50,852 bases of DNA. It comes from Macrostomum lignano (Eukaryota). Of the stretch, positions 1 through 50,022 are shown piece after piece. The notes under the pieces are model-generated. The model did no database searches. It worked only from the letters and a program-made list of their open reading frames with translations, and was not told the DNA's origin. Position numbers and translations under genes: made by a program. The stretch covers positions 1 through 50,852 of the forward strand of contig NIVC01004312.1 in NCBI GenBank assembly GCA_002269645.1, in the 5' to 3' direction. Every line of letters begins with the position of its first letter. Within the stretch, counting starts at the first letter, position 1.

Positions 1-297
1 ATATGTTATATATTCTTCCCAAAGTGGTAACTCTCTTCTGATCTAGGTTTAAATTTTTTATCAATACATAAAAATTCCAATGACTTTTTCAAATAACATT
101 TCGTTAGGTATGTTACCTATCCTTATAAACTTTGTATTCTCTCGAATAAGAAAATTGAAATAATATCCAACTAAATTAAAATCCTTTCAGAGTCTCGAAC
201 TTAATCCCTTTCCTTTATTTAAATGGAAAAGTTATTATATAAATAAACATTATTTCCGGGAATTAAAATTGGATCAGAAATGTCTCTTGTAAGATTC

Positions 298-462
298 TTA
301 AAATTGTGTTTTTAAAATAGTAATATGAGTTTTCAATCTTTTTTGTTTTTCAAATTGATATATTTTAGAACATGAATAACACATATGATATATATCTCCG
401 TTTGCTGTTTGCCCTCTGTGCATAGTCACATTACATTTATTACATTCGTAAATGTCTTTCAT
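298..462 (-). CDS. Small 54-aa viral ORF with CxxC...CxxC (zinc-ribbon-like); may continue through frameshifts toward the window start
   Basis: Hand translation MKDIYECNKCNVTMHRGQTANGDIYHMCYSCSKIYQFEKQKRLKTHITILKTQF. A-run before the ATG; divergent from the 490 ORF with only 27 bp between them. Confidence 0.45.
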   Translation of the reverse strand: MKDIYECNKCNVTMHRGQTANGDIYHMCYSCSKIYQFEKQKRLKTHITILKTQF

Positions 463-489
463 TTTTTTTATTATTTTTTAGATTAAAAA

Positions 490-822
490 ATGGAGAGCTG
501 GTTCAAAACCGATTCTAATGTGATTAATTATCTCACACCCAATATGTTGGAGAATAAAGAATATAATATTATATGTTTGAGACAGGTTAAATTTATTGGG
601 CTTCAATCAATATTTTTACAATTAGATGGGCAAAAAATTTTATGTCTAAGCGGAGATGATGTTAAAAATTTTCCTGTTTTAGTTATTAATAAACCTAAAG
701 CGTTTGTTATGAATACTGCAACGAGAGGTGGATTGCAATTTAAACTAAAACAAACAAATAATAAAAAGAGTGATAGGACTGTAAAATTGGCGGCTGTTTG
801 GGAGGATGACGACGAAGACTAA
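490..822 (+). CDS. Polinton orphan protein, 110 aa, beta-rich with acidic C-terminal tail (WEDDDED)
   Basis: ORF track; AAAAAATG start; AT-rich codon use like neighbouring viral genes. Confidence 0.7.
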   Translation: MESWFKTDSNVINYLTPNMLENKEYNIICLRQVKFIGLQSIFLQLDGQKILCLSGDDVKNFPVLVINKPKAFVMNTATRGGLQFKLKQTNNKKSDRTVKLAAVWEDDDED

Positions 823-837
823 ATTTTTTATAAGAAA

Positions 838-1296
838 ATGGATACGATAAAAATCCTTATCACTAAAGAGCGTGAACTTAATGATATTAATAAAAAAATA
901 AATATAATTATATCTCAGAAATATCATGAGTATGGGGACGATATGTTTCCCATCCGATATGAAATGGATAAAAGAAAACGTTTTATTAAATCTGCAATTG
1001 CTTATGCTGAAACAGTAATTGAAATCGAAATAGATAGGTTGGTTAGAAAAATAAAAAAACTTAGGAAAAAAATAAAGGATTGTTTAAGTTACCCTGACGA
1101 CTGCGAGGAAAATTGGCCTTCAATATTATATGAAATCGAAATGGATATTATGCTTAAACAATTACATGCTTTAGTTTTTTTCCGCCCGAAGGGTCGCGGA
1201 TTTTATCCGATAAGTAATTTTTCTGTTAATCTCTTCCAGTTATTCAAGACTTTTTCCTTATTTAATTTTTTAAGTTCTTTTGGAAATGTTGAATAA
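838..1296 (+). CDS. Polinton orphan protein, Lys/Ile-rich, likely coiled-coil; true 3' end uncertain
   Basis: ORF track; starts 15 bp after the previous stop with GAAAATG. The 3' end overlaps the convergent 1203-1451 ORF and runs through a T-run, so a frameshift near 1175 is possible. Confidence 0.6.
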   Translation: MDTIKILITKERELNDINKKINIIISQKYHEYGDDMFPIRYEMDKRKRFIKSAIAYAETVIEIEIDRLVRKIKKLRKKIKDCLSYPDDCEENWPSILYEIEMDIMLKQLHALVFFRPKGRGFYPISNFSVNLFQLFKTFSLFNFLSSFGNVE

Positions 1297-1451
1297 TAAT
1301 TATCTATATCTTTTTCATATTCTAGAAATGTATTATATTCACAATCACATTCGGATTCACAATCACAATCGTAATAATAATTATTTATTGCCGCTTTGTA
1401 TTCATTATATTTACTTATTATATCTTCTTTTTGTTTTTTATCTTTTATCAT
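1203..1451 (-). CDS. Small 82-aa viral ORF (K/Y/acidic, DCDCESECDCE segment) coupled to the polB stop
   Basis: Its ATG overlaps the reconstructed polB TGA (ATGA, 1448-1451). Confidence 0.6.
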   Translation of the reverse strand: MIKDKKQKEDIISKYNEYKAAINNYYYDCDCESECDCEYNTFLEYEKDIDNYYSTFPKELKKLNKEKVLNNWKRLTEKLLIG

Positions 1452-4400
1452 ATTTTTATCTCTTCTTTTAAACCATATGGATATGTTTTAATTTTATCAT
1501 CTAAATACCTTTTATCATCAAATGGACTTAATGTTTTTTTATCTGTCTCGATGACAAACATCTGATGCTTTTCTGAATTTAATCGATATTGTGGAGCATG
1601 ATAATTTTCAATTGTATTAAGGTAATCTAAAAGTACGTTTTTATAATCATCAAATGTTATCTTTTTTACTGCTGCTCTTGATACCCCTTTTATTTTTTTT
1701 ACCTCTCCCTCCTGTCCTAAAACCTTAAATGCATAGCATTTGATCTTATTGCTATAAACTCGGTTATGATTTTGCTATTTAATTCATCTTTCATTTTAAG
1801 TACAACTTTTTTATTTTGATCTGATTTTAAAGGATGGTTATCCGGATAGTCGGAGGTATCCAGTGTATCCTTAATTTTTTCCATATCTTTATAGACATCG
1901 AACCTTTGGTTCGTGGGCTTTGCCCGATCATCTGTTTCAACCTTAAATACCAAACTGTCGGTGTCTGCATATATTGGATAGTTATCTGGCCATGTTTTAT
2001 TTATAACATCATAATAGTATTCATACATTACCAGCTTTGCATAATCTAAAACAACCATTCCAATAAATATTGGTTTAAGAAATTTTGTTGTTTTATTTCT
2101 CATATGAATACCCATAAAGTTATCATCAAATTTTATAAAGTCTTTAAAGTTAGGTTTTGAGAAATATTTCTTTGCTTTATCAATATCCTTTTCTAAATGG
2201 AATTGGGTTCTATCTCTAATATTTTCAACCGTTTTTCCATAAAAAGCATTATTCATTAATTTCCAATAATCTTTCTCAAAATTTGTTTTTGACATCTGTC
2301 TCTGATTTGAATTAAAGTCAATATATTTAGCTAACCAATCTTCCTCAATAAACGATATTGTTCGATGTACTTTAGACACTTTTAATCCCTGTTTTTCATA
2401 AAATTGTAGAAGCTTATAATGCACTACATAGTTTTTCTTATCATGTAAATTTAATATTAATTTTTTTGTTGCTAGATGTTTTGCATTATCTACTTTAAGA
2501 TAATCTTTTTGTGTTTGTGATAAATCATCTTCATTAACTGAACAATGCTCTGGAGCTAAAGGATATTTATATGTTTTTGCTTTTGCTTCCCGAGTATATT
2601 GCAAATCCACCTCTACAATACAGCCCCTTCCTTCGGGAATATTTTTGTAATAATCGGGGTCATCTTCCCATTGGAAATCAGCTATTGGTAATTTTTGTTT
2701 CATACAACCACCGTATAAATTGTTTGCATCTAGATATAATACATATGATGATTTTTCTTTTTTATTATAATTTGGAAGATACTTATTATTTACTTTAGTA
2801 TATCTATCTCCTAGTACACCCGAGAATCCGCCGCGAATTCCTCTCTCAATCATTAACAACATATCATGATCAGTTAGTAAATCAATCTTAACATCTGTAT
2901 GTTTCAAACCACAAGCCCATGTTAATCCCGGTGCACTGAAACAATATGCGGGATCAATTTTAAAATTCTCATATGTATGATTCCTAAAGTTTTCAAATGC
3001 ATCAGCTAATAGGAGAACATCTGCTTTAAGATATAGATTATGATAATCTTTAAATGTTTTACAATTAAAGTATTTCCATACTTTTTGAGCGTGTTCATAA
3101 TCCGATTCACTTATATTTGATTGTGATAATGTGGAATAAAACTTTTCTATGGGCGGTAATTCGGTATGAAAAAATACGTCTTCAGATGTTACATATTCAT
3201 ATGGATAGATGCCCTTACGAGTTAATAGCATTAGTTCTTCCTCGGATAGTTTTTCTTTTTGAACGATTCAATAGTATTGGAAAGTTTTTCTTTACTATTT
3301 CTAAATCCCATGGTTTTGGAACTAATGATGAAACAACATTTGCTAAAGATGTTGATAAGAATCTCAAGGAATCTAGAAAAACTAGATGGGAGTATTTCTT
3401 ACCATATGTTATTGATATGTAATTTTCTGATGTTTTAGGTAATATATTTATTTCATATTCATCCTTTCCTAAATGAAGCAATTCTCGAACTAAGAAATGA
3501 AAATCATATCCGGAACCATTATGAAAAAATACTGGTATTTCCTTACATCCTTTTCCTTCTTTTGCATTACATGATCTACATGCTGCCCTCGATAATTTCC
3601 TGTTAGATGACAATGTTCTCGTATCTTATTATTCTTACTTAAATGTCTTTTGCACATAAAACAATTTGTTGCATTTTTATAATTGTCTCTATCCTTATTT
3701 GTCATATTAATATTTTTTGATAATTTATCATATTGATTTTGAATATATTCAAATACATTTACTAATGATTCTGCCATGTGCTTAGCTGCATCATTACCGT
3801 GGTAAGTAATCATCCTTGATTTAAATATATGATCAGCTACAGAGTGTACATATATACAATAACTATTCGGAAACTGTTGTGCCAATTTTTTTGTGCATTC
3901 GTCCCGTAGGGTCGCGTGCTTTGCACGATCCCCATCATCAGATGCCGTCTGTGATTCTTTTAAGGGAACATTTGTTGCTTCAAAATCAGCATATATTACT
4001 ATTGGTTTTTTAACTGCCATATAATGTTGTTGGAACTTTAGGGTTGCATCTTCAGATGCTGGCATTATAGCATTAGTAAATTTGTGATCTAAACAAAATC
4101 GTTGGTGGTTTTTAAGAGCTGTTTCATCCTTTTTAAATGTAAAACAATTTCTACATAGTGGATATCTATTTCTATTTTCTCTTAAAAAAGAACTAATATC
4201 TTTTATGTATATATAATGTGTTTCATTTTCGCGCTGCATGTACAAAAGATCGATTTGATCTGGTGCTGTTATATCAGTTGCTGGCTTAACAAGATAACAC
4301 CTTTTCTTATACCATTCTGGATCGGTTAAAATTTCTTCTAGATCTTTTGGTTCTTCAATTGTAAACACATTAATATTTAAACCATTCATTTTTTCAATCT

Positions 4401-5181
4401 TATATATATCATCTATTGCTACTGGGTATGATATGTTTTTCATTATTATTTCATCCTCATATTGTCTATAATTATATATTTTATTAATGTGTGATTCTAC
4501 TTGATTGTGATATTTATGAATTAATAAACACCATAATAAACATTTATTATCTTTATTGTCTGGATTTATAATCATAGGTGATTTAAATTTGAGCTTCATA
4601 TGTGATCGTCCTTTAAGAATTTCTATAGGTGCAATCTTTACTATTGCTGAATTACAGGATACAAATATAAACCCAGATCCGTTTTCTGTCATCTTATCTA
4701 TCCATTCATCAAACTCAGCTTCTATTTGATCGAATTGATTGTTGTAATTTCCCATTGATAATAATGTTTTATATGATTCTTGTGAAAAGTTATTTATTAC
4801 TTCAATTTCTGAATTTGCATTAAGAATATTTGGTTTTTTAAATTCTGTTTCAACTTCTATTTTATACTTAATTGGCTGTCGTTTGTTATTTGGCCTTATA
4901 GTATAATTGATTAATATGGTCTTTAATTTATCTTTCATTTGTTTAAAATATTCTTTATAATTTGTATTTATATCTATATCTATATATATTACTTCAGCTC
5001 CATTTTGTCCTTGTGGTTGGAGGTTATCAATATCATTTAATTGTCTTTCTAAACGTATCTCATTTTCTGCCCTAATTCTTGCTTCTATTTCAGCCCTATC
5101 GGCAATTCGTTGTGCTTCGATTTGAGCTATTAATTGTGCTCTAAGTTCAGGGTTGTCGATTTGAGCTAAAATTGCTTCCAT
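1448..5181 (-). CDS. polB: Protein-primed family B DNA polymerase (pPolB), about 1244 aa after repairing three single-base indels; N-terminal terminal-protein/OTU-like region, C2H2 finger and EndoVII/HNH insert
   Basis: ExoI YADFE, ExoII HNGSGYDFHFL, ExoIII YLKADVLLLAD, motif A YLDANNLYG, motif B KLMNNAFYGK, motif C YADTDSL. HNH-like CFMC...EHCHLTGNYRG/AACRSCN. Frameshifts: -1 in C-run 3586-3588, +1 in T-runs 3250-3260, -1 in T-run 1739-1741. The repaired C-terminus is RSKCYAFKVLG...KKTLSPFDDKRYLDDKIKTYPYG...EIKI*. Confidence 0.95.
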
Positions 5182-5265
5182 TTTATAGAATAAAATTTAT
5201 ATAATGTTTGAATTATTGATTTTTTAATTTTGTGTTTTTGGTGTCCTGACCCACCCCCCAGGAGC

Positions 5266-6259
5266 CTATTCGAGATCTGCTTTTGGTAACAGTAATCCAT
5301 TGCCCATAACGTTTGAATTTAAGAAAATTCCTGAACCTGCTTTTGGTCTCATTTCGAGATATAATCCGCTTCCGTCGTGTTTTTCAATGATATTAAAATC
5401 TTTTCCTAATTTATTAAAAATTTTCTGAACAGCTGGTCTAAAATTGGATCCAATATTGTCAAAAAATCCTTTAGCTTTCTCACCCGTTTTTTCTAAAGTT
5501 TGACCAAATTCATGTAGTTTATCTGCGACAAGTCCACTTCCTTGGGTTGTTCCTTTTAGTACCAAACCATTCCCGTGATTTGTTCCTTGCAAGAGTAAAC
5601 CTTTTCCAGCTGATAACCTAGCTTCTGCATTTCTTTTTTGCTCAGCTGTTGCTGAACTACTATTAATTGTATCGATAAGTTTTTGTTTAAATTGTGCGTC
5701 CTGCGTTATTTGCTGTCTTTGAAATTCGGCCTCTCTTTTAGCTTTTTCGTCCGCAGCTTTTTTGTCATTTACTGCTTTTGCAATTCCAGCTGCTCCGCCA
5801 GCAACTCTCCAGCTGCTCCAATTCCTGCAAAAATTATTGGGAGCAAAGCTGCAAGGGGCAAGATTCCCCCCTGTTTCGCTCTTAACTCTCCTAGCTGTTT
5901 TACATTATCATGAATTCTTTTTCCGGCTAAACCGACTGCTCCAGCTGCGCCAAGTCCTAAAAGAAGCGGTAGAATGGGTAGTAATCCGCCGTCCTTTTTA
6001 GTGTGAGTCTCCATTAAAAATTTCACATCGGAGTCTGTCAACCTATAATTTCTGCCGCGATTCTTAAAGATATTGGCCTTCCTTCTTGTGCATATTTTGC
6101 TGCGAGTTTAAATGTATCGATGTCGTAGTCAAACTTTTTACCTAATCGATCCAATCTTTTTAACATTGTGTGGGTTTGCTTATTATCATCAAGATTTAAG
6201 GTATCTACAATTTCTCCTATAAAATATAACCGGTTTTCATCATCATTAACTGAGCCCAT
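5266..6259 (-). CDS. Core/pX-like polyprotein, about 331 aa when three ORF-track fragments are joined
   Basis: Adding one base near 6040 gives ...AAEIIG-LTDSDVKF...; adding one near 5806 gives ...FAGIGAAGxVAGGAAGIAKAVNDKK...LSAGKGLLLQGTNHGNGL.... Two GG-(L/I)LP hydrophobic segments resemble adenovirus pX (GGFLPALIP). Repeated G-x-G-(L/I) motifs. Confidence 0.75.
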
Positions 6260-6269
6260 TTTTATATTG

Positions 6270-6668
6270 TTAAAATTTCTTTAATCCTTTTCCACCTTTA
6301 ATAGTATTTAACATTTTATTAAAATCCTGAATATCTTTATTACTTATTGGTGCGCTTTTCGTGGGGGTTTCTGTTGGTTGTGCGGCTTGTGCCAGCTTTA
6401 AATCTTTTATTGCATTTATTTGTGAGAGGGTGTCGTTAAAATCTCTCAATTTCTTTAGTTCTTCTGCCGCTCTAGCTGCTTCAATTCCTCCTTTTACAGC
6501 ATTTGTTATAGAGCCTGCTGCAGAGCCAGCTTGCCCTATAAGCCCCATATTGTCTTTAACAAAATTTGCTGCTGTTCCAACCAAATCAAAAAGTCCCTCA
6601 CCTCGGTATTCAATTGGATCTCCTACCTGATACTCATTTATATTTTGCACATGTGTAACGTGTGTCAT
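6270..6668 (-). CDS. pVI-like putative membrane-lytic virion protein, 132 aa
   Basis: True ATG at 6668 (CAAAAAATG). YRGE-GLFDLVGTAANFVKDNMGLIG amphipathic helix follows a GxG site; C-terminus IKGG-KGLKKF. Confidence 0.7.
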   Translation of the reverse strand: MTHVTHVQNINEYQVGDPIEYRGEGLFDLVGTAANFVKDNMGLIGQAGSAAGSITNAVKGGIEAARAAEELKKLRDFNDTLSQINAIKDLKLAQAAQPTETPTKSAPISNKDIQDFNKMLNTIKGGKGLKKF

Positions 6669-7077
6669 TTTTTGTTCTATTTTTAGTAACAGAAAAAAAG
6701 AATACGAGAACACACAAAAGAATATTTTTCAACCCAAGATGGTGTATATACTGCATTGAGTCATTTTTTTCTGGACGTCCAGAATTTTTCTGGACGATTT
6801 GTTAAAAACTTATTCATTGATGGTGGGCACCCCATTTTACTTGTGACGCGCGGAGCCTGTCTTCTTCTTCCTGAGAGATGAGCTAGAACTGGGTTGATGG
6901 CTGTGGTTTTTATAGAGTTGGATGGCTGAGTGGGCGTTCAATTCCTGCTACGGCAAGATTTTGCAAGCTAGCCAATAGTGGCTATGAGAGTAATTTTTTG
7001 TTGAGTGTTACTATTACCATGACTCAGTTTAAACTCTTTTGTGACCCTTCGCGCCTGCGGCGCGGGCAAGGGGTTAT

Positions 7078-7351
7078 AGAGTAGTAGTATAGAAAAAGAC
7101 GCTTCTAGATCAGACCTTATTTTAATTACCGTTTTTAAGGTCTTAAGAGGGGGGACGCGAGGGGAGTATTGGGGAGTGTTTGGAAGTGTTGGGATTGATT
7201 TTTATTGTTAGGGGTGATTATGGGTGATTAGATGTGTTAAGGGTGATTAGATGTGTTTTTTTATTTACCCCCCGTGTCCCCCCTCTAGACCCTTAAAACG
7301 GTAATTAAAAAAGTGCTCTGGGTCTAGAAGCGTCTTTTTCTATACTACTCT
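7078..7351. repeat. Terminal inverted repeat pair (arms about 7078-7165 and 7268-7351) enclosing a ~100-bp G/T-skewed loop
   Basis: AGTAGTATAGAAAAAGACGCTTCTAGA (27 nt) is identical in both arms; further identical blocks TTTTAATTACCGTTTT and GAGGGGGGAC. Confidence 0.9.
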
Positions 7352-8373: not shown

Positions 8374-10332
8374 TTACTGCACACCGATGCAGGCCACCGG
8401 GTGGTACACCCCCCAGCACAGGCTGTACCGACGCCCGCCTCTCTTGTTGAGGCCAGTCGAGGTCAGCACGACTGACGGGATCAACTTCTGCAGGATTCCT
8501 TTTGGCAGGTTATGAGTAGCCTCGACATACTTCAGCTCATGCTTCACGTCGCCCAGCTGAAATTAGTGCAAAAAATATCACAGAATTGCTAAACCGTTGC
8601 AAAACTAGTTTCAAAGACTGCTAAACCAATCTTGACGACTGTTAAACCAATCTTGGCGATTGTTGAACTAATCTTGGCGATTGTTGAACTAATCTTGGCG
8701 ATTGTTGAACTAATCTTGGCGATTGTTGAACTAATCTTGGCGATTGTTGAACTAATCTTGGCGATTGTTGAACTAATCTTGGCGATTGTTGAACTAATCT
8801 TGGCGATTGTTGAACTAATCTTGGCGATTGTTGAACTAATCTTGGCGATTGTTAAACTAATCTTGGCGATTCTTAAACCAATCTTGACGACTGTTAAACC
8901 AATCTTGGCGATTGTTGAACTAATCTTGGCGATTTTTAAACTAATCTTGGCGATTGTAAACCAATCTTGGCGATTGTTAAACCAATCTTCACTATTGTTA
9001 AACTAATCTTGGCGATTGTTAAACTAATCTTGGCGATTGTTAAACCAATCTTGGCGATTATTAAACCAATCTTGGCGATTGTTAAACCAATTTTGGCGAT
9101 TGTTAAACCAATTTTGGCGATTGTTAAACTAATCTTGGAGATTGTTAAACCAATCTTGGCGATTGTTAAACCAATCTTGGCGATTGTTAAACTAATCTTG
9201 GAGATTATTAAACTAATCTTGGAGATTTTTAAACTAATCTTTGTGATTGTTAAACTAATCTTGGAGATTATTAAACTAATCTTGGAGATTGTTAAACTAA
9301 TATTGACGATTGTTAAACTAATCTTGGCGATTGTTAAACCAATCTTGACGATTGTTAAACTAATCTTGGAGATTGTTAAACCAATCTTGGCGATTGTTAA
9401 ACTAATCTTGGAGATTGTTAAACTAATATTGACGATTGTTAAACTAATCTTGGCGATTGTTAAACTAATATTGACGATTGTTAAACTAATATTGACGATT
9501 GTTAAACTAATATTGACGATTGTTAAACTAATCTTGGCGATTGTTAAACCAATCTTGGCGATTGTTAAACTAATCTTGGAGATTGTTAAACCAATCTTGG
9601 CGATTGTTAAACTAATCTTGGAGATTGTTAAACCAATCTTGGAGATTGTTAAACTAATATTGACGATTGTTAAACTAATCTTGGCGATTGTTAAACTAAT
9701 CTTGGCGATTGTTAAACTAATATTGACGATTGTTAAACTAATATTGACGATTGTTAAACTAATATTGACGATTGTTAAACTAATCTTGGCGATTGTTAAA
9801 CCAATCTTGGCGATTGTTAAACTAATCTTGGAGATTGTTAAACCAATCTTGGCGATTGTTAAACCAATTTTGGCGATTGTTAAACTAATCTTGGAGATTG
9901 TTAAACCAATCTTGGCGATTGTTAAACCAATTTTGGCGATTGTTAAACTAATCTTGGAGATTATTAAACTAATCTTGGTGATTGTTAAACTAATCTTGGA
10001 GATTATTAAACTAATCTTGGAGATTGTTAAACTAATCTTGGCGATTGTTAAACTAATCTTGGTGATTGTTAAACTAATCTTGGAGATTGTTAAACTAATC
10101 TTGGCGATTGTTAAACTAATATTGACGATTGTTAAACTAATCTTGGCGATTGTTAAACCAATCTTGGCGATTGTTAAACCAATCTTGGCGATTGTTAAAC
10201 TGATTTTGACGATTGTTAAACCAATCTTGTCACTCTCACCATCAGTTCCAGATTCTTATAGCGGCCAGCTGGCAGAGCCGAAAGCACCGTCGCCAGGCAG
10301 AGCAGAGCGAACGCCAAACCAATGCTGCTCAT
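8374..10332 (-). CDS. Two-exon secreted neuropeptide-like precursor, 91 aa (exons 10332-10240 and 8556-8374)
   Basis: Exon 1 [31 protein letters not shown] (signal peptide) ends at a GTGAGA donor. The TTTCAG acceptor gives phase-0 exon 2 [60 protein letters not shown]. Dibasic sites precede a two-Cys peptide. Confidence 0.85.
8620..10229. repeat. 21-bp minisatellite (AAACTAATCTTGGCGATTGTT)n filling the neuropeptide gene intron
   Basis: Direct inspection; causes the spurious 124-aa and 508-aa ORFs. Confidence 0.97.
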
Positions 10333-11562: not shown

Positions 11563-13453
<1,891 letters not shown>

Positions 13454-13919: not shown

Positions 13920-14687
<768 letters not shown>

Positions 14688-15338
14688 AATCAACAGGAAT
14701 GAACAGTTTCCAAAGTGCTTGCAACACTGCATTGCTCCATCCCTGATCTCAAGAGTTCAGACAAATGTCACTTTTTTTTAAAACAGAAGTTCCTCAAATT
14801 TCGACTCTGAGCGATGACAAGCCAAATCCACAGGGGAAGCTGGGCTGAGGAAATGCGAAGAGATGGAGAGTCAGTCAGCCGCAGAATATCTGTGCTGCTA
14901 ATCAAATATCACGCAGGATGCACTTTCTCTCCCCTGCCTGCCTGGCGCTGCTGTTTCCCCTCTCCCCTTTTTTCTCCCCGCAGGCGATTTGGCCATTCGG
15001 CCTTCGAATAGGGCGAGGGGAAGGCGTTGTCATGGCAACTAGCAGAGCTTGGGGAGCAGACTAAGGCGCTTTACTTCGTCTATGAGACGGCGCTTGGCTT
15101 TCTTCCCCGATTTCTCTCAGACCCGAAGCCAGCCAAATCCCAACTGGGCTCTGGTCTGCGTGACCTGACAAGTTCAATTTTCAGTTTAAAAGCGGCAGCG
15201 TAAGTTTAGACAGATAATGTTTTTAGTAGTGTAAACACAATGTTAATAATTGTTTGCATGCGTGTGAACAGAAACATTTAGTTTGCATGGAAACTTTAAG
15301 ACAGTTATTGCCATTGTTACAAGCATATTTAGATTGTT

Positions 15339-29163: not shown

Positions 29164-32100
29164 TTAGCCGGCTTCATTGGCGTATCTGCGCTGCATTTCA
29201 ATGTCGCGCAGCTGTTCCAGGGTGAGCAGCGACACGCCCAGCTGATCCTGACGGGTGAACGGCTGGGCCATTTGTTTGAGAAATCGGCGAGATATTTGCA
29301 CGGCTTCGTCCACTGAGAGATTGAGTACAGCCTCGCTTAGGTTTTCCTGGGGAATTATAGTGTGCTTGTGCAGTTCAGTCCTGGGAATTACAGTGTGCCT
29401 GAGAAATTTAGCCTAGGGGGAATTACAGTGTGCTTGTGCAGTTTAGTCCTGGGGAATTACAGTGTGCTTGTGCAGTTCAGTCCTGGGGAATTACAGTGTG
29501 CCTGAGAAATTTAGCCTAGGGGGAATTACAGTGTGCTTGTGCAGTTTAGTCCTGGGGAATTACAGTGTGCCTGAGAAATTTAGCCTAGGGGGAATTACAG
29601 TGTGCTTGTGCAGTTTAGTCCTGGGGAATTACAGTGTGCCTGTGCATTTAGCCACTGGGGAATTACAGTGGGCCTGCGCAATTTAGCCACTGGGGAATAC
29701 ATTGTGCCTGAGCAATTTGGCCACTGGGGAATTACAGTGTGCCTGTGCATTTAGCCACTGGGGAATTACAGTGGGCCTGCGCAATTTAGCCACTGGGGAA
29801 TTACATTGTGCCTGTGCATTTAGCCACTGGGGAATTACAGTGTGCCTGAGCAATTTAGCTACTGGGGAATTACAGTGTGCCTAAATATTTTAGCCACTGG
29901 TGAATTACAGTGTGCCTGAGCAATTTAGCCACTGGGGAATTACAGTGGGCCTGCGCAATTTAGCCACTGGGGAATTACAGTGTGCCTGCGAAAATTAACC
30001 CTGGGGAATTACAGGAGTACCTGCGCAGTTTAGCCATAGAATTCCAGATATTTTTCAGGGTTTATCAGAATTCCAAAACTTCCGCAATGTCTCGTGAGCC
30101 GAAAATAATTTTTCTGATGTCTTTTTCATACATAGGTAATTATTTGTTGCAAATGAAACCCAGTTTACTGTCTAAAACAGTTTTTAAAAATGACCGCATT
30201 AAAAAACTCACTCCTCAAGGGTGTCTGTGCGGGCATGCGTATTATCTAATCTGAAAATTACCTTGAGTGTGTCAAATATGTACTGCACTGGCTAAGCATG
30301 GTCCCATTTAATTTCTGCACAGCGACAGTTAAGAATTCATATTCCAGTTATGATTTTTCATAAATTTCAAGGCACATACATAGCGTGTGAGCGTAAAGGA
30401 CAAAGTTCAAAGCAATAATTGAACTGGACCGAGAAAACTCGATGCCAACTTTGGAAGTCCCTCGTATTTTAATTTCAGATCACACGTAGTTTTTGCAACC
30501 ATTGGGTTTATGTGTACATTGAGGGAATAAGGAATCCATCGGGTTTACATGCATATGTACACTGGGGGTAGGGAAATCCATCGAGTTTATATGTACAATG
30601 GGGGTAGGGAAATCCATCGGGTTTACATGTACACTGGGGGTAGGGAAATCCATCGAGTTTATATGTACAATGGGGTAGGGAAATCCATCGGGTTTACATG
30701 TACACTGGGGGTAGGGAAATCCATCGAGTTTATATGTACAATGGGGGTAGGGAAATCCATCGGGTTTACATGTACACTGGGGGTAGGGAAATCCATCGAG
30801 TTTATATGTACAATGGGGGTAGGGAAATCCATCGGGTTTACATGTACACTGGGGGTAGGGAAATCCATCGGGTTTATATGTACACTGGGGGGTAGGGAAA
30901 TTCATCGGGTTTATATGTACACTGGGGGGTTAGGAAATCCATCGGGTTTATATGTACACTGGGGGGTAGGGAAATCCATCGGGTTTATCTGTACACTGGG
31001 GGGTAGGGAAATTCATCGGGTTTATATGTACACTGGGGGTAGGGAAATCCATCGGGTTTACATGTACACTGGGGGTAGGGAATTCCATCGGGTTTATATG
31101 TACACTGGGGGTAGGGAAATCCATCGGGTTTACAATATGTACACTGGGGGTAGGGAAATCCATCGAGTTTATATGTACAATGGGGGTAGGGAAATCCATC
31201 GGGTTTACATGTACACTGGGGGTAGGGAAATCCATCGGGTTTACATGTACACTGGGGGTAGGGAATTCCATCGGGTTTACATGTACACTGGGGGTAGGGA
31301 AATCCATCGGGTTTATACTCGTATGTACAGTGTGAATAGAAAAATGTATCTGCGATTTAATGTACAGAGGGGTAGAGAAATCGGCAATTGAATACAAATT
31401 GGCTCAAAGTACACACTGAAGTACACATAGACATGCATCCGCACTGTAAAGATACCTGAATCCACCTGGGCAGTTTTGTTCGCTTGTCGGCCCTGGCGAA
31501 CCGTTTGTCAGCGAACAGCATGATGCCATAGTCGGTCTTGCCTCTCAGCGCCCGCCCAACGCACTGGGCCGCGTGCCGCATTGCATCGAACGTGAGAAAG
31601 TCGTTCTCCCTGATGTGAAAGTGTTCACGCAGATAGTCTAGGCGGGTCTTCAGAATTCTGCTCTGGGTATAGACGTAGGGAACGCCAAACATAATTACGC
31701 AACGGCCCAAATGATGATCGAAGTCGATACCCTCGGACACTTTGCCGCGAGCTACTGATAGTAGTATAGCGCCGCGTCCATTCTCGCAGGCTCGCTGATA
31801 GTTATAGAGAGCGATGCTAGTCTCTTGAGCGTCCTGAGTTTCGATGAACACTAGCTTGTACTTTTGCACCTGATCGATAATCTTCTGCTCGTACCAGGCC
31901 GCGAATATGGTCTCCAGGTACAGATAGCTGGGAAAGAAGCAGACGAGGCCGTCTGGTACAACTCGGGCCATTTCTAGCAGCAGGCTGCCGTAGTTGCGCA
32001 TCACTGCTGGGTCTTCGCGACTCTCGTAGCGAGAGGTTATGGTCACCTGACAGGTGTGGATTAACGATTTTTACATACTGTAACATTTATATAACTATAA

Positions 32101-35100
32101 AAATGCATACTTGGGTTTAATATACATCAAAGGATATCGCTTCATCAATTTGGGAAGCTGGGAGTAGGAACTAGGGATAAAAATCTTACAGGTGACGCTT
32201 CATCGACTCGGGAAGCTGGGAGCAGGGATAAAAGTCAAACAGGATATCGCTTCATCAACTCGGGAAGCTGGGAGTAGGAATAAAGGTCCTAAAGGATATC
32301 GCTTCATCAACTTGGGAGGCTGGGAGTAGGGATAAATATCCTACAAGATACCGCATCAACTCGGGAAGCTGGGAGTAGGGATAAACATCCTACAGGATAC
32401 CGCTACATCAACTGAGGAAGCTGGGAAGAAGAAGCTAGTAAAGATTAGAATAAAGATCTTAATCGACAAACTGCACAAACCGTAAAAAAACAAGCAAATT
32501 CAAAACCCACAGTTTTTTCTCACCTGATCATTGCCCTTAGCAACAATCATAGGACAGATACACTGCCTAGCCAGCGTGACAGTGAATGACACCATATTAA
32601 CTGGCCGGAAGTCCAATATACGCGGATACATTTCCAACGGTGACAGAGTGCCTGAGGTGATCAATACAGTTTGGAAGCGGGCAAACACAGGCCTGACAGC
32701 GATGCTGGCGTCCATGCAAGTCAGGTGCATGATCGGATTGATCACAGTCGGTGCCCGATCGTCGAAGGGTTCAACTAGGAAGCAGAATCCGCGCAGATAG
32801 GTAGCTAGCAGGGTGGCCAGGTTGGCTACGCGGAACAGGCTGCCCAGTTCTGGCGATTCGGCCACCTCCAGCGTGGCCAGGAGGCTGCGCAGGCGCTCGT
32901 GACAGAACCGAAGCGGCTTCCGATCCAGGCACACCCGTTCGGAGCAGTCGCGCAGAAATGCGGCCGGACTCTCCGACACGACGTGGACAACTCGGAGTCG
33001 AAGTTTCAAGTATTCGAGGAAACGGCGCAGGAAGGCTAGGAAATGCTCGGCTGTGCGAATGTTGCCTGGCACCGCTTCGCGTAGCACCTGCGGGCGGGAA
33101 TGGGGGTGGCGGTGGCTTGGGAACTGGGTGAGAAACTGGTTAGAGAGGGGTGAGAAACTGGTTGGAGATGGGTGAGAAACTGGTTAGAGGGGGTGAGAAA
33201 CTGGTTAGAGATGGGTGAGAAACTGGTTGGACATGGGTGAGAACCTGGCTGAGAATCATGAGAAACTGGCTGAGAATCATGAGAAACTGATAAGCCACAA
33301 TTACCTGATCTGGAAGCACAGGATTAGCCAGAATGAGGTCAGTCTCCCTAGCGGACTGGGCCTCGCGCAGGTTATTAACAAGCCTGTTGTACTCCTCCTG
33401 CAGCTTGGCGGCGTCTTGCTGCTTGATCTCTCTAACCCGATTCTGCAAGCTGTTCAAGCCTAGCTGAGCACGGTCTAACGACCGGCGACTCAGCGTTACG
33501 CTCATTGATTCGATGCAGACATTGTCAATGTTGTGCGCCTCGTCGAACACAACAATGCTAGATTTGGGCAGCTGCTTGGAAACTAATTCGGATATTTTCG
33601 GATCCAACAGATAGTGATAGCTGTATACAATGATGTTGGCAGTTGACATTGAATACCGGGCAAAGAAGTACGGGCATAGGCCTTTACGGCGACCGTAGGC
33701 CTTCAGGTGCAAAATGGGGGCGGCGTTCCTGTAAGCTAATTAAATTCATAGTTACTCCTGCCGAATACCTTACTGACAGTCACTACTAATTAGATGACGA
33801 GGCAATATAGCTTGCTAGTCAAAAAATTCATAGTTACTCCTGTCGAATACCTCACTGACAGTCACTAGTAGTCACTACTAATTAGATGACAAGGCAATAT
33901 AGCTTGCTAGTCAAAAAATTCATAGTTACTCCTGCCGAATACCTTACTGACAATCTCTACTAATTAAATGAAGCAATGTGGCTAGTCAAGAAATTCATAG
34001 TTACTTTTGCCGAATACCTTAATGAAAATTACTACTAATTAGATGACGAGGCAATGTGGCTAGTCAATAAAGCCATAGTTACTCCCGTTCTTATTATCTT
34101 CCAATTTACCTTCAAATCGTCCAGATTGTACACCCCAGGCGGCAGCAAGAACTCCCGGCCGTGAGCGTCGAATTCTTCGTAGTACTGACAGCCTGGCGGC
34201 GCGGATTCAACATCGGCGCCGGCGCGGCCAATAGCATGGCGCCGACGATCGCGCACAAAACTGGCGGTGAGCTGATGACAGGCGCTGTCGATTGACCGAC
34301 CGTCACCGGCGTTGCCCTCCAGCACGTCGGCGTTGATGCATAAATTTTTGCGCGAGCTAAGCGCCATACCGGTCAGGTTGAGCGTGACGCCATTCTTAGT
34401 GTAATAATCGAATAGAGTCTTCATCTCTTCTACAACTTTCTCTAGCTCAGGCACGGTGCGCGAACAATACACCAGCTTGCTCACGTGATCTGGCGAATGG
34501 TGCAGATAGGCCACGGTCAGAGACAGAATTGTGATGGTTTTACCCGTGCCAGACGGCATCTCGAGTACGCAATGACCCTGAAAATTGATATTGCAAATCA
34601 AAAAAAAACAAAATTAGATTTTAATGTCCAATTACGCTACTTATAGTAGATTTCGATATCTAAAAAATGAAACAGTTAGCAGTAGCAAACCTTAGCATCG
34701 ATGCTCCTTTTAAACTCCACCATGTAGGAGTACTGCTCCGGGTAGATGTACTCATATGGAAATAGGACAGGCAAGCCGTCTACATTCAATCTGTTTGGCA
34801 GGTTAAAGACAATGTATTTTATTAGCATTGTTGCTTTTAGATTTCTATTAAACATGAAATTTGATTTTTACAAATCAAATTACAAATTATACAGCACTGT
34901 ATTAGCATTTAGTATCATGGGTTCAAATTCTGGTCACCAAATTGCAAACCAGGGTACCAGCTGGTGTCAGTTAAGAAGTTTAGGATCAAATAAATGCCTG
35001 TCTCTAACCTTTACTGTGGAGGGGTGTAGCCTAGAGGTCTCATGCAGCACTCTTATGTGCATACATACATCTTGGCTTGGCTCTGCTTGTGCAATTAACA

Positions 35101-49000: not shown

Positions 49001-50022
49001 ATATAGTAATAAGCCGCTGCAACCTGGCAGGTGTCACAGAATCCATCAAGTCACTGAATCCATCATTATCAAGTGATAGAATCTATCAAGTCACTGAACC
49101 ATCATCATCAAGTGACAGAATCCATCAAGTCACTGAATCCATCAAGTCAGTGAATCCATCAAGTCACTGAATCCATCAAGTCACTGAATCCATCAAGTCA
49201 GTGAATCCATCAAGTCAGTGAATCCATCAAGTCACTGAATCCATCAAGTCACTGAATCCATCAAATCAGTAAATCCATCAAGTCAGTGAATCCATCAAGT
49301 CAGTGAATCCATCAAGTCAGTGAATCCATCAAGTCACTGAATCCATCAAGTCACTGAATCCATCAAGTCAGTGAATCCATCAAGTCAGTGAATCCATCAG
49401 GTCACTGAATTTATCAGGTCACTGAATCCATCAGGTCACTGAATCCATCAGGTCACCGAATCCATCAAGTCAGTGAATCCATCAAGTCACTGAATCCATC
49501 AAGTCACTGAATCCATCAAGTCACTGAATCCATCAAGTCACTGAATCCATCAAGTCACTGAATCCATCAGGTCACTGAATCCATCAGGTCACTGAATCCA
49601 GCAGTACAGCAGAATACTCAATAATATGTCTCACATGCAACGGCACGCAGGCGGTCCTGTCAGCCGTCGGTCCTTCATCCGCGCCGCAGTCCACGCAGTC
49701 GTCCTTAGCGTCTGTAGTTCGCTGATGCGGCTGACAATCGGCACAGGTCCAGCAGCACTTGTCTTTATTGGCGCCCTTATTGGAGTACATCTTCTTCTGG
49801 CCGATGGCGCACTCTTCGCTGCACCGGGAAATTGGCACGTCGAGATAGCCGCCGGTCCAGTAGATCTCGTTTGTCCAGGCCAGACCGGTGCCTTGCGCCA
49901 TTCGCCAACGCGGGTGCATAGTCCCAGTGCTTGTTCTCACGGTCTCGCCGATAGTTTGTAGATTTTATAGGTGCCGATACCGTCGCCCGCCTTGGTGAAT
50001 TGTACTTTTCTATTTGCCGAAT
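43070..50022 (-). CDS. Metabotropic glutamate receptor (class C GPCR), 3' part; exons 50022-49635, 45345-44660, 43895-43706, 43560-43070; upstream exons not found in the window
   Basis: GDGIGTYKIY, cysteine-rich domain (SRCSEEC...CCWTC), 7TM with VKASGRELSY, KTNRIARIF, IKTRRIPENFNESKFIGFTMYTTCIIWLAFVP, PKLYII..PEKNVRK. Contains indels at ~44917 and ~49890-49957. Confidence 0.93.
43985..44518. repeat. 40-bp intronic minisatellite
   Basis: (AGAGCGAGTGTACATTGATGAATGGTTTGAGGTTGGTATG)n. Confidence 0.96.
47218..47715. mobile_element. MITE-like element with an internal 21-bp array (GGCGCCGCAGGCACTCATTTT)n
   Basis: Inverted AGGGGCGTCGC ends; G-run/C-run subterminal hairpin; no clear TSD. Confidence 0.6.
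47821..48422. mobile_element. 602-bp MITE with the same 21-bp array in the opposite orientation
   Basis: Perfect 16-bp TIR CATAGGCGTAGGAACG; ACTG directly repeated on both flanks. Confidence 0.8.
49045..49600. repeat. 17-bp intronic minisatellite (GAATCCATCAAGTCACT)n
   Basis: Direct inspection. Confidence 0.96.

Follow-up and report, generated by a model that had tools for sequence, protein, structure and literature searches.

Double-hairpin elements (DHEs) are known from the mitochondria of chytrids and fission yeasts (Paquin et al., 2000, as cited in PMC10085805 and PMC5910586), and the way in which tiny GC-rich hairpin elements move has been left open for fungal and yeast mitochondria (PMC4478555, section 17). 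The present analysis concerns a family of gene-less double-hairpin units in a Polinton/Maverick element of Macrostomum lignano (assembly GCA_002269645.1). The stretch under study, called the window below, is contig NIVC01004312.1 at its full length of 50,852 nucleotides (nt), and plain coordinates refer to it. The units, each 30 nt long, are mobile and modular, and the evidence leans, by a modest measure, towards the view that they parasitize the Polinton and are moved by its own replication and nuclease enzymes.

The window holds the right-hand ~7.3 kb of an AT-rich Polinton/Maverick copy (1 to 7351), whose other end lies beyond the contig start and which is 98-99% identical to the copies in contigs C632 and C1547. 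The genome contains about 100 copies, as counted from 99 alleles at the first and 86 alleles at the second of the insertion sites described below and from 115 protein matches. The gene at 1203 to 5181 on the minus strand encodes a protein-primed family B polymerase with an Endonuclease VII-type domain (PF02945, matched by the unbroken C632 copy). In the window it is split by small frameshifts into pieces at 1717-3231, 3215-3613 and 3490-5181, and in complete copies the protein has 1324-1327 amino acids (aa). The predicted structure of a natural unbroken copy matches the phi29 polymerase (E 1.8e-17), and the carrier has the protein-primed polymerase B by which a Polinton/Maverick is recognised.

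The initial annotation of the window had noted two GC-rich islands within this AT-rich gene, and both lie where it placed them. Cassette 1 (1897 to 1928, minus strand) has a 28-nt double-hairpin core at 1899-1926 with AT on both sides, and forms a 30-nt in-frame insert just past polymerase motif C that reads ETDD-RAKPTNQRFD-VYKDM. Cassette 2 (3898 to 3929, minus strand; core 3900-3927, AT before and AA after) is a 30-nt in-frame insert past exonuclease motif I, for which the earlier reading DRAKHATLRD was obtained again. The two share 15 of their 18 leading nucleotides and differ by a compensatory pair change, as had been stated (checked by eye). The unit itself had been described as a 27-nt core between 3-bp GAT repeats; it consists in fact of 28 + 2 nt, and a 3-bp duplication was rejected because the G of GAT is target sequence that differs between sites. 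The annotation rightly recognised two members, but it missed a third cassette in the window (1182 to 1211, core 1182-1209, minus strand), and the family extends over the whole element. Cassette 3 lies where the polymerase gene and an open reading frame (ORF) at 838-1296 converge with their 3′ ends; across copies its site shows full, half and remnant alleles, and in C632 it supplies the polymerase stop codon. Six further sites, near 725, 848, 938, 986, 1091 and 1129 (720 to 1135; four of these positions were read by eye), are empty in the window and filled in other copies. The presence of the cassettes is confirmed.

Each unit joins two hairpins, the first of 13 nt and the second of 15 nt, to a spacer of 2 nt that is mostly AT, giving 30 nt or ten codons. 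A generic template (CG-NN-C-NNA-G-NN-CG followed by CG-NN-CC-NNN-GG-NN-CG) has 322 matches in the genome compared with 11 for a control pattern; the motif proposed in the initial annotation has 47 compared with none. A finder that used structure only recovered nine, four, ten and two double hairpins in four copies and none in shuffled sequences, and the number of units per copy varies from 4 to 10. The 50 distinct cores are combinations of 17 first and 33 second hairpins (loop variants counted). Free stem positions are paired in 88.5% of cells, compared with 37.4% after shuffling (maximum 47.5% in 2000 shuffles), a contrast that does not translate into a probability, the copies being related and their kinship uncorrected. 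The flanking dinucleotide is AT in 80/108 cases on the left and 93/108 on the right, and the inverted ends of the unit amount to 4 nt (ATCG..CGAT). Head-to-tail joints with an AT spacer were found 43 times, compared with none for the control, in arrays of up to three units that keep the 30-nt register; head-to-head pairs also occur. At site 1, where cassette 1 resides, one allele carries two cassettes and another carries a single cassette made of the first and last hairpins of that pair, and hairpins are indeed exchanged as modules. Folded as a circle, the unit adopts a dumbbell with the AT unpaired in three of four folds, and each reading frame is open in most unit types (41-47 of 48 per frame).

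Mobility was documented by comparing the alleles of the copies, whose classes at sites 1 and 2 were counted by hand (the site 1 pattern does not cover the alleles of C77 and C87, which have two cassettes). The empty alleles that the initial annotation had proposed to look for exist at both sites. Among the 99 alleles of site 1, 53 are full, 10 are exactly 30 nt shorter and 36 are short by 1-7 nt. Site 2, the position of cassette 2, is empty in 54 of 86 alleles, filled at the window position in 16, filled one codon upstream in 15 and occupied by a remnant in one; the 15 shifted cassettes carry the same kind of second hairpin. Across the element, 33 site clusters were defined, some of which are one site counted twice (~25-28 are distinct); an exact 30-nt-shorter allele was found at 25, another empty form at three and none at five. 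Because the exact alleles occur at 25 of 33 clusters, one of them intergenic, the 30-nt length is intrinsic to the unit. Removal of 30 nt from cassette 1 had been expected to restore ETDDVYKDM: the alleles of exactly that length are real, but they spell ETLDVYKD or ETPDVYKD, and the TDDVYKD spelling occurs in outside homologues such as P0006. The codon before site 1 is Pro or Leu in 10/10 empty alleles and begins with GA in 87/89 filled ones. Copy C1776 pairs a codon of the empty type with a different cassette, which suggests that an insertion struck this position a second time. Further, in a tree built from the sequence that separates sites 1 and 2, filled and empty alleles lie scattered, with 9 changes compared with a minimum of 4 (all rows were kept, including the poorly trimmed L165, whose branch is long). 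In short-read contigs of this organism, taken from four runs of as many studies, site 1 is filled in all four, with a different first hairpin, and a joint or a 30-nt gap (empty) is seen at site 2 in two of the four. The recurrence of filled and empty sites in four independent studies indicates that the cassettes are not an artefact of this assembly. No sequencing run containing the element is recorded as RNA.

Homologous polymerases agree with an insertion past motif C. As the initial annotation had stated, the spacing in the family is short: in a set of 120 homologous proteins, of which 34 were unmeasurable by the pattern used, it is 26-28 in 85 of the 86 measurable and 31 in one, compared with 37 in the window. 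The loop past Exo I is ~12 residues shorter in six homologues measured at 26. The closest homologues stand at 50-57%, and a cassette-type peptide is absent from the 120 polymerases, one chance match aside.

More than the polymerase is affected. Units lie inside aligned ORFs in 54 of 95 cases, one of which is a mis-assignment, the remainder being located between genes or at gene ends. They occur, in either orientation and in phases 0, 1 and 2, in the genes of the polymerase, the putative protease, the ATPase and the integrase, as well as in three unknown genes. Two units contain an in-frame stop, and these lie close to where the putative protease ends. Polymerase frames remain unbroken over 1324-1332 codons with one or two cassettes and over 1307 in empty copies. 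The location of the inserts in the protein was taken from an alignment-based structure model of one natural copy (mean predicted local distance difference test, pLDDT, 88.6; a single-sequence model, at pLDDT 33, was unusable). In this model, insert 1 is placed in the loop between the strand that follows motif C and the next helix, where pLDDT falls to 62 from 96 in the preceding block, and insert 2 is placed at the tip of a long beta-hairpin, with blocks at 54 and 65. Both inserts are thus predicted to sit in loops at local dips of confidence. The earlier proposal that small structured mobile units land in frame in loops is supported: close homologues do not carry these residues as ordinary conserved sequence, empty alleles exist, and the motif is far more frequent than chance.

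The units are very probably a mobile selfish element. Granted this, a route through replication and nuclease action is the better supported account of how they move. Protein-primed, strand-displacing polymerases expose single strands, and Endonuclease VII cleaves branched DNA. During strand-displacement replication of the Polinton, a unit could fold in single-stranded DNA so that its flanking dinucleotides meet. It might then leave as a 30-nt dumbbell carrying its own AT, or be copied into one, and a 2-nt exchange would link the dumbbell to the target at a dinucleotide that is usually AT. The likeliest cutters would be the element's own Endonuclease VII/HNH domains, and the likeliest filler its polymerase. 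Filled alleles may subsequently travel between viral genomes through recombination, crossing over at the shared CGCG joint of tandem arrays would shuffle the hairpins, and the ten-codon length together with the mostly stop-free frames would allow persistence in a gene-dense genome.

The main support for this route, with its donor-borne AT, comes from the mixed flanks. At AT targets the filled alleles read AT..AT, and at non-AT targets they read AT..XY, XY..AT or XY..XY. Site 2 shows AT..AA (16), GT..GT (10) and AT..GT (5), the orf218 site shows all three flank forms, and two further sites show TT..AT. The flanking repeat is 2 nt long and not always a true duplication, and the mixed flanks at non-AT targets argue for an AT brought by the donor over plain target duplication. 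The AT..GT alleles at GT targets led to the rejection, as a full account, of a Helitron-like insertion between A and T. The integrase was likewise rejected as the mover in view of its 6-bp target duplication.

Several observations weigh against the route through replication and nucleases, or against the clarity of the pattern. No analysis linked an enzyme to the unit, and no excised form was seen, although no search aimed at it was made. The integrase duplication is 6 bp in one of two copies read, not 2 bp, and the mixed flanks could stem from later mutation or mismatch repair. An A-G mismatch is kept in one common second hairpin (12/50 cores). For the 36 of 89 filled site-1 alleles that are short by 1-7 nt, assembly error and decay are indistinguishable, and the tree is confounded by recombination, so that repeated gain and precise loss are inseparable there. 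Finally, 29 relatives with the same polymerase type, retrieved from IMG/VR, contain 0-2 unrelated double hairpins each; since such a family is missing from them, these enzymes alone do not predict cassettes.

The principal rival keeps the selfish unit and dispenses with the nuclease: the polymerase would hop onto a folded cassette through 1-2 nt of AT microhomology, copy it and hop back, with stem compensation arising from intrastrand template switching. This course is possible, if rather unlikely. It accommodates the confinement of units to the element, the prevalence of AT at the targets (the 80/108 and 93/108 given above), the landing of new units beside old ones and the one-codon shift of same-type cassettes at site 2, and the AT..AA, TT..AT and GT..AT forms are compatible with 1-nt microhomology. 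Contrary to this, the AT..GT alleles at GT targets require two donor letters and offer no microhomology, slippage would have to be precise to give exactly 30 nt at 25 clusters, and the persistent A-G mismatch stays uncorrected.

Movement in trans would be a second alternative, in which a transposase with AT as its target, supplied by the host or by co-infection, mobilises a miniature inverted-repeat element. The 4-nt inverted ends and 2-nt flanking repeats fit such a unit, as does the same-template unit in an unrelated element described below. Nevertheless, the scenario is improbable: none of 97 inspected matches lies in host DNA, although the host makes up nearly all of the 764 Mb, the flanks are not always duplications, and the inverted ends are very short. 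These 97 come from the first 100 listed of the 322 matches, 225 being outside the check; 87 have both flanks in the element, nine have one flank in it, and the last is adjoined by a 97-nt element match.

Very improbable, too, is that the units are useful viral signals (transcript ends, or marks for packaging or replication) that selection maintains and that vary only incidentally. Stems maintained by compensatory change, several units between genes and at gene ends, a similar hairpin in the terminal repeat, and the identity of the first hairpin of cassette 1 with the tip of one arm of the T-shaped terminal repeat of adeno-associated virus (AAV; PMC3004791) speak for this. However, all well-sampled sites have unfilled copies, some of them with unbroken 1307-aa polymerase frames, and the units occur in both orientations, often mid-gene, and in numbers that vary from copy to copy. 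An origin by assembly artefact or chance, to which the many small indels of the assembly that are missing from the short-read contigs might have pointed, has a negligible probability and is already refuted by the 322 compared with 11 matches, the four independent studies with filled and empty alleles and the absence of double hairpins from shuffled sequences.

Outside M. lignano, a metagenome scan with the template returned 75 matches, three of which are true units, on contigs L104, L132 and L140 of an unrelated Polinton-like element whose integrase is 32% identical to the one studied here. The unit, of the same template, lies in frame at an ORF start, and a further unit, of 27 nt, is present in L140 and missing from L104 and L132. 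The other 72 matches were rejected as chance (DNA of 53-75% GC), three of them pairing nearly as well. L140 also contains a PLA2-integrase fusion and a tyrosine-recombinase-like ORF (L140:1-2461), and the start of its 177-aa ORF resembles an array in decay, with units of 27 and 30 nt. Scanning of IMG/VR with the AT-flanked template gave no match; among the matches listed for the unflanked template, at least 120, none was perfect in both stems and none in low-GC DNA was perfect in stem 1; and the half-template gave 26 matches, none with a paired first stem. Single-protein searches of IMG/VR found no related loci, and an alignment search found the 29 mentioned above. A wider picture can be drawn, of gene-less parasites of Polinton viruses, 27-30 nt long, that travel as closed single-stranded dumbbells with a dinucleotide core of their own, are cut out and pasted in by the polymerase-fused nuclease, cross from one virus to another, unrelated one and keep adding loops of ten residues to viral enzymes; taken as a whole, it is doubtful.

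The carrier was characterised from other copies as well. Full-length copies measure ~18-19 kb, with polymerase, integrase, ATPase and terminal inverted repeats (TIRs) of ~300 bp. The rve integrase (PF00665) and the Pox_A32 packaging ATPase (PF04665) were found in other copies, outside the window. The TIR is ~308 bp at both ends of the C632 copy; of the two copies read by eye, C77 has the 6-bp target duplication and C632 does not. In the window, the TIR occupies 7043 to 7351 and contains an internal inverted repeat of ~84 nt, by which ~270 nt at each end could form a fold-back; a hairpin at 7050-7064, just inside, fits the second-hairpin template. This arrangement is conserved in all copies viewed. 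ORFs of 490, 261 and 146 aa have no match in Pfam or PHROG, and the labels MCP and mCP (capsid proteins) and PRO (putative maturation protease) given to element ORFs are presumptive, taken from size, position and motifs. Besides the Endonuclease VII domain of the polymerase, the element encodes a separate EndoVII/HNH-like gene. The slot before the integrase is variable and holds either this gene or an Eco47II-like nuclease (a weak Pfam match below the cut-off; L050:6912-7493, L033:6044-6661, L038:174-689), and cassettes are often found at the 3′ end of whichever nuclease gene fills it. In one copy read, a stop and a segment of ~230 nt with other sequence break the stretch upstream of the integrase (L038:634-2264), which we take to be PLA2-like from its motifs. 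About 5.3 kb is duplicated within the copy at C110:524900-535100, and the copies in C87 and C954 are rearranged or fragmented. The rest of the window includes a tandem array of 21-bp repeats with an open frame of 508 codons (8630-10230), 4-bp satellites (~11570-13450 and ~13920-14690), exons of a host XPD/ERCC2 helicase with introns filled by tandem repeats (31357-34850, minus strand) and an exon of a family-3 G-protein-coupled receptor (49584-49940, minus strand).

The whole system is compact, with an 18-kb genome, ~18 ORFs, ~100 allelic copies, ~25 polymorphic sites and three or four candidate enzymes, and for this reason oligonucleotides and purified domains can be used to test how hairpin elements move. 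In addition, the inserts provide a natural map of the sites where the polymerase, the ATPase, the integrase and the putative protease tolerate ten extra residues, and they illustrate one way in which viral proteins acquire loops and changed ends.

As regards described carriers, the element corresponds to the pPolB2-HNH Polintons or Alpha adintoviruses (10.1101/2023.08.22.554363; PMC8502044), with their nuclease-inserted polymerase, rve integrase, ATPase and TIRs. The available main texts of these two papers, supplements aside, do not contain 'hairpin' or 'palindrom', and no account of such units in Polintons or adintoviruses was found in the literature covered, from which most subscription journals and supplements fall outside. 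A transposase of the HUH type, as in the REP/RAYT system, is absent from 14 element ORFs scanned with Pfam and 11 with PHROGs, the ORFs of 218, 109 and 136 aa lying outside the scans. The long terminal inverted repeats, matched to a transposase, and the host-wide spread of miniature inverted-repeat transposable elements contrast with the 4-nt ends and the 0/97 inspected matches in host DNA. The AAV2 terminal repeat (PMC3004791) resembles the unit in its two short GC arms and 3-nt AAA/TTT loops, and the 12 nt at 1915-1926, in hairpin 1 of cassette 1, are identical to one arm tip. The AAV2 arms, however, close a long stem and act as a Rep origin, and most family members have other stems and loops; kinship was rejected, and the likeness is probably convergence.

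The yeast GC42 clusters (PMC4478555) come close in several respects: a 2-nt flanking repeat, clean empty sites, constraint on the stems, merger and shuffling of units, which the Polinton family also displays, spread by recombination with co-converted flanks, and endonucleases proposed as movers. They belong to an organelle and use AG, whereas the Polinton units belong to a virus and use mostly AT, with mixed flanks that point to a donor-borne dinucleotide. With the mitochondrial DHEs (PMC10085805; PMC5910586) the units share shortness, GC-richness, two adjacent hairpins, the lack of a gene and a patchy presence; stems kept by compensatory change and presence or absence at homologous sites are likewise common to both. 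The comparison is one of described features. Fission-yeast DHEs are mitochondrial and lie between genes or in rRNA genes, whereas the Polinton units are integrated in the nucleus, over half of them in proteins, with a length fixed at ten codons. Rickettsia palindromic elements (RPEs; PMC2229807) offer the parallel of in-frame fusion into conserved proteins, apparently tolerated, but they are stem-loops of 105-146 bp in a bacterial chromosome, compared with the two short hairpins in 30 nt of the Polinton units, which are modular and polymorphic among near-identical copies. The analogy to DHEs and RPEs drawn in the initial annotation thus holds for the similar working and the in-frame tolerance, and breaks down on location for the former and on size for the latter. 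In conclusion, the Polinton units are not classed as DHEs, GC clusters or RPEs, from which their location or their size sets them apart.
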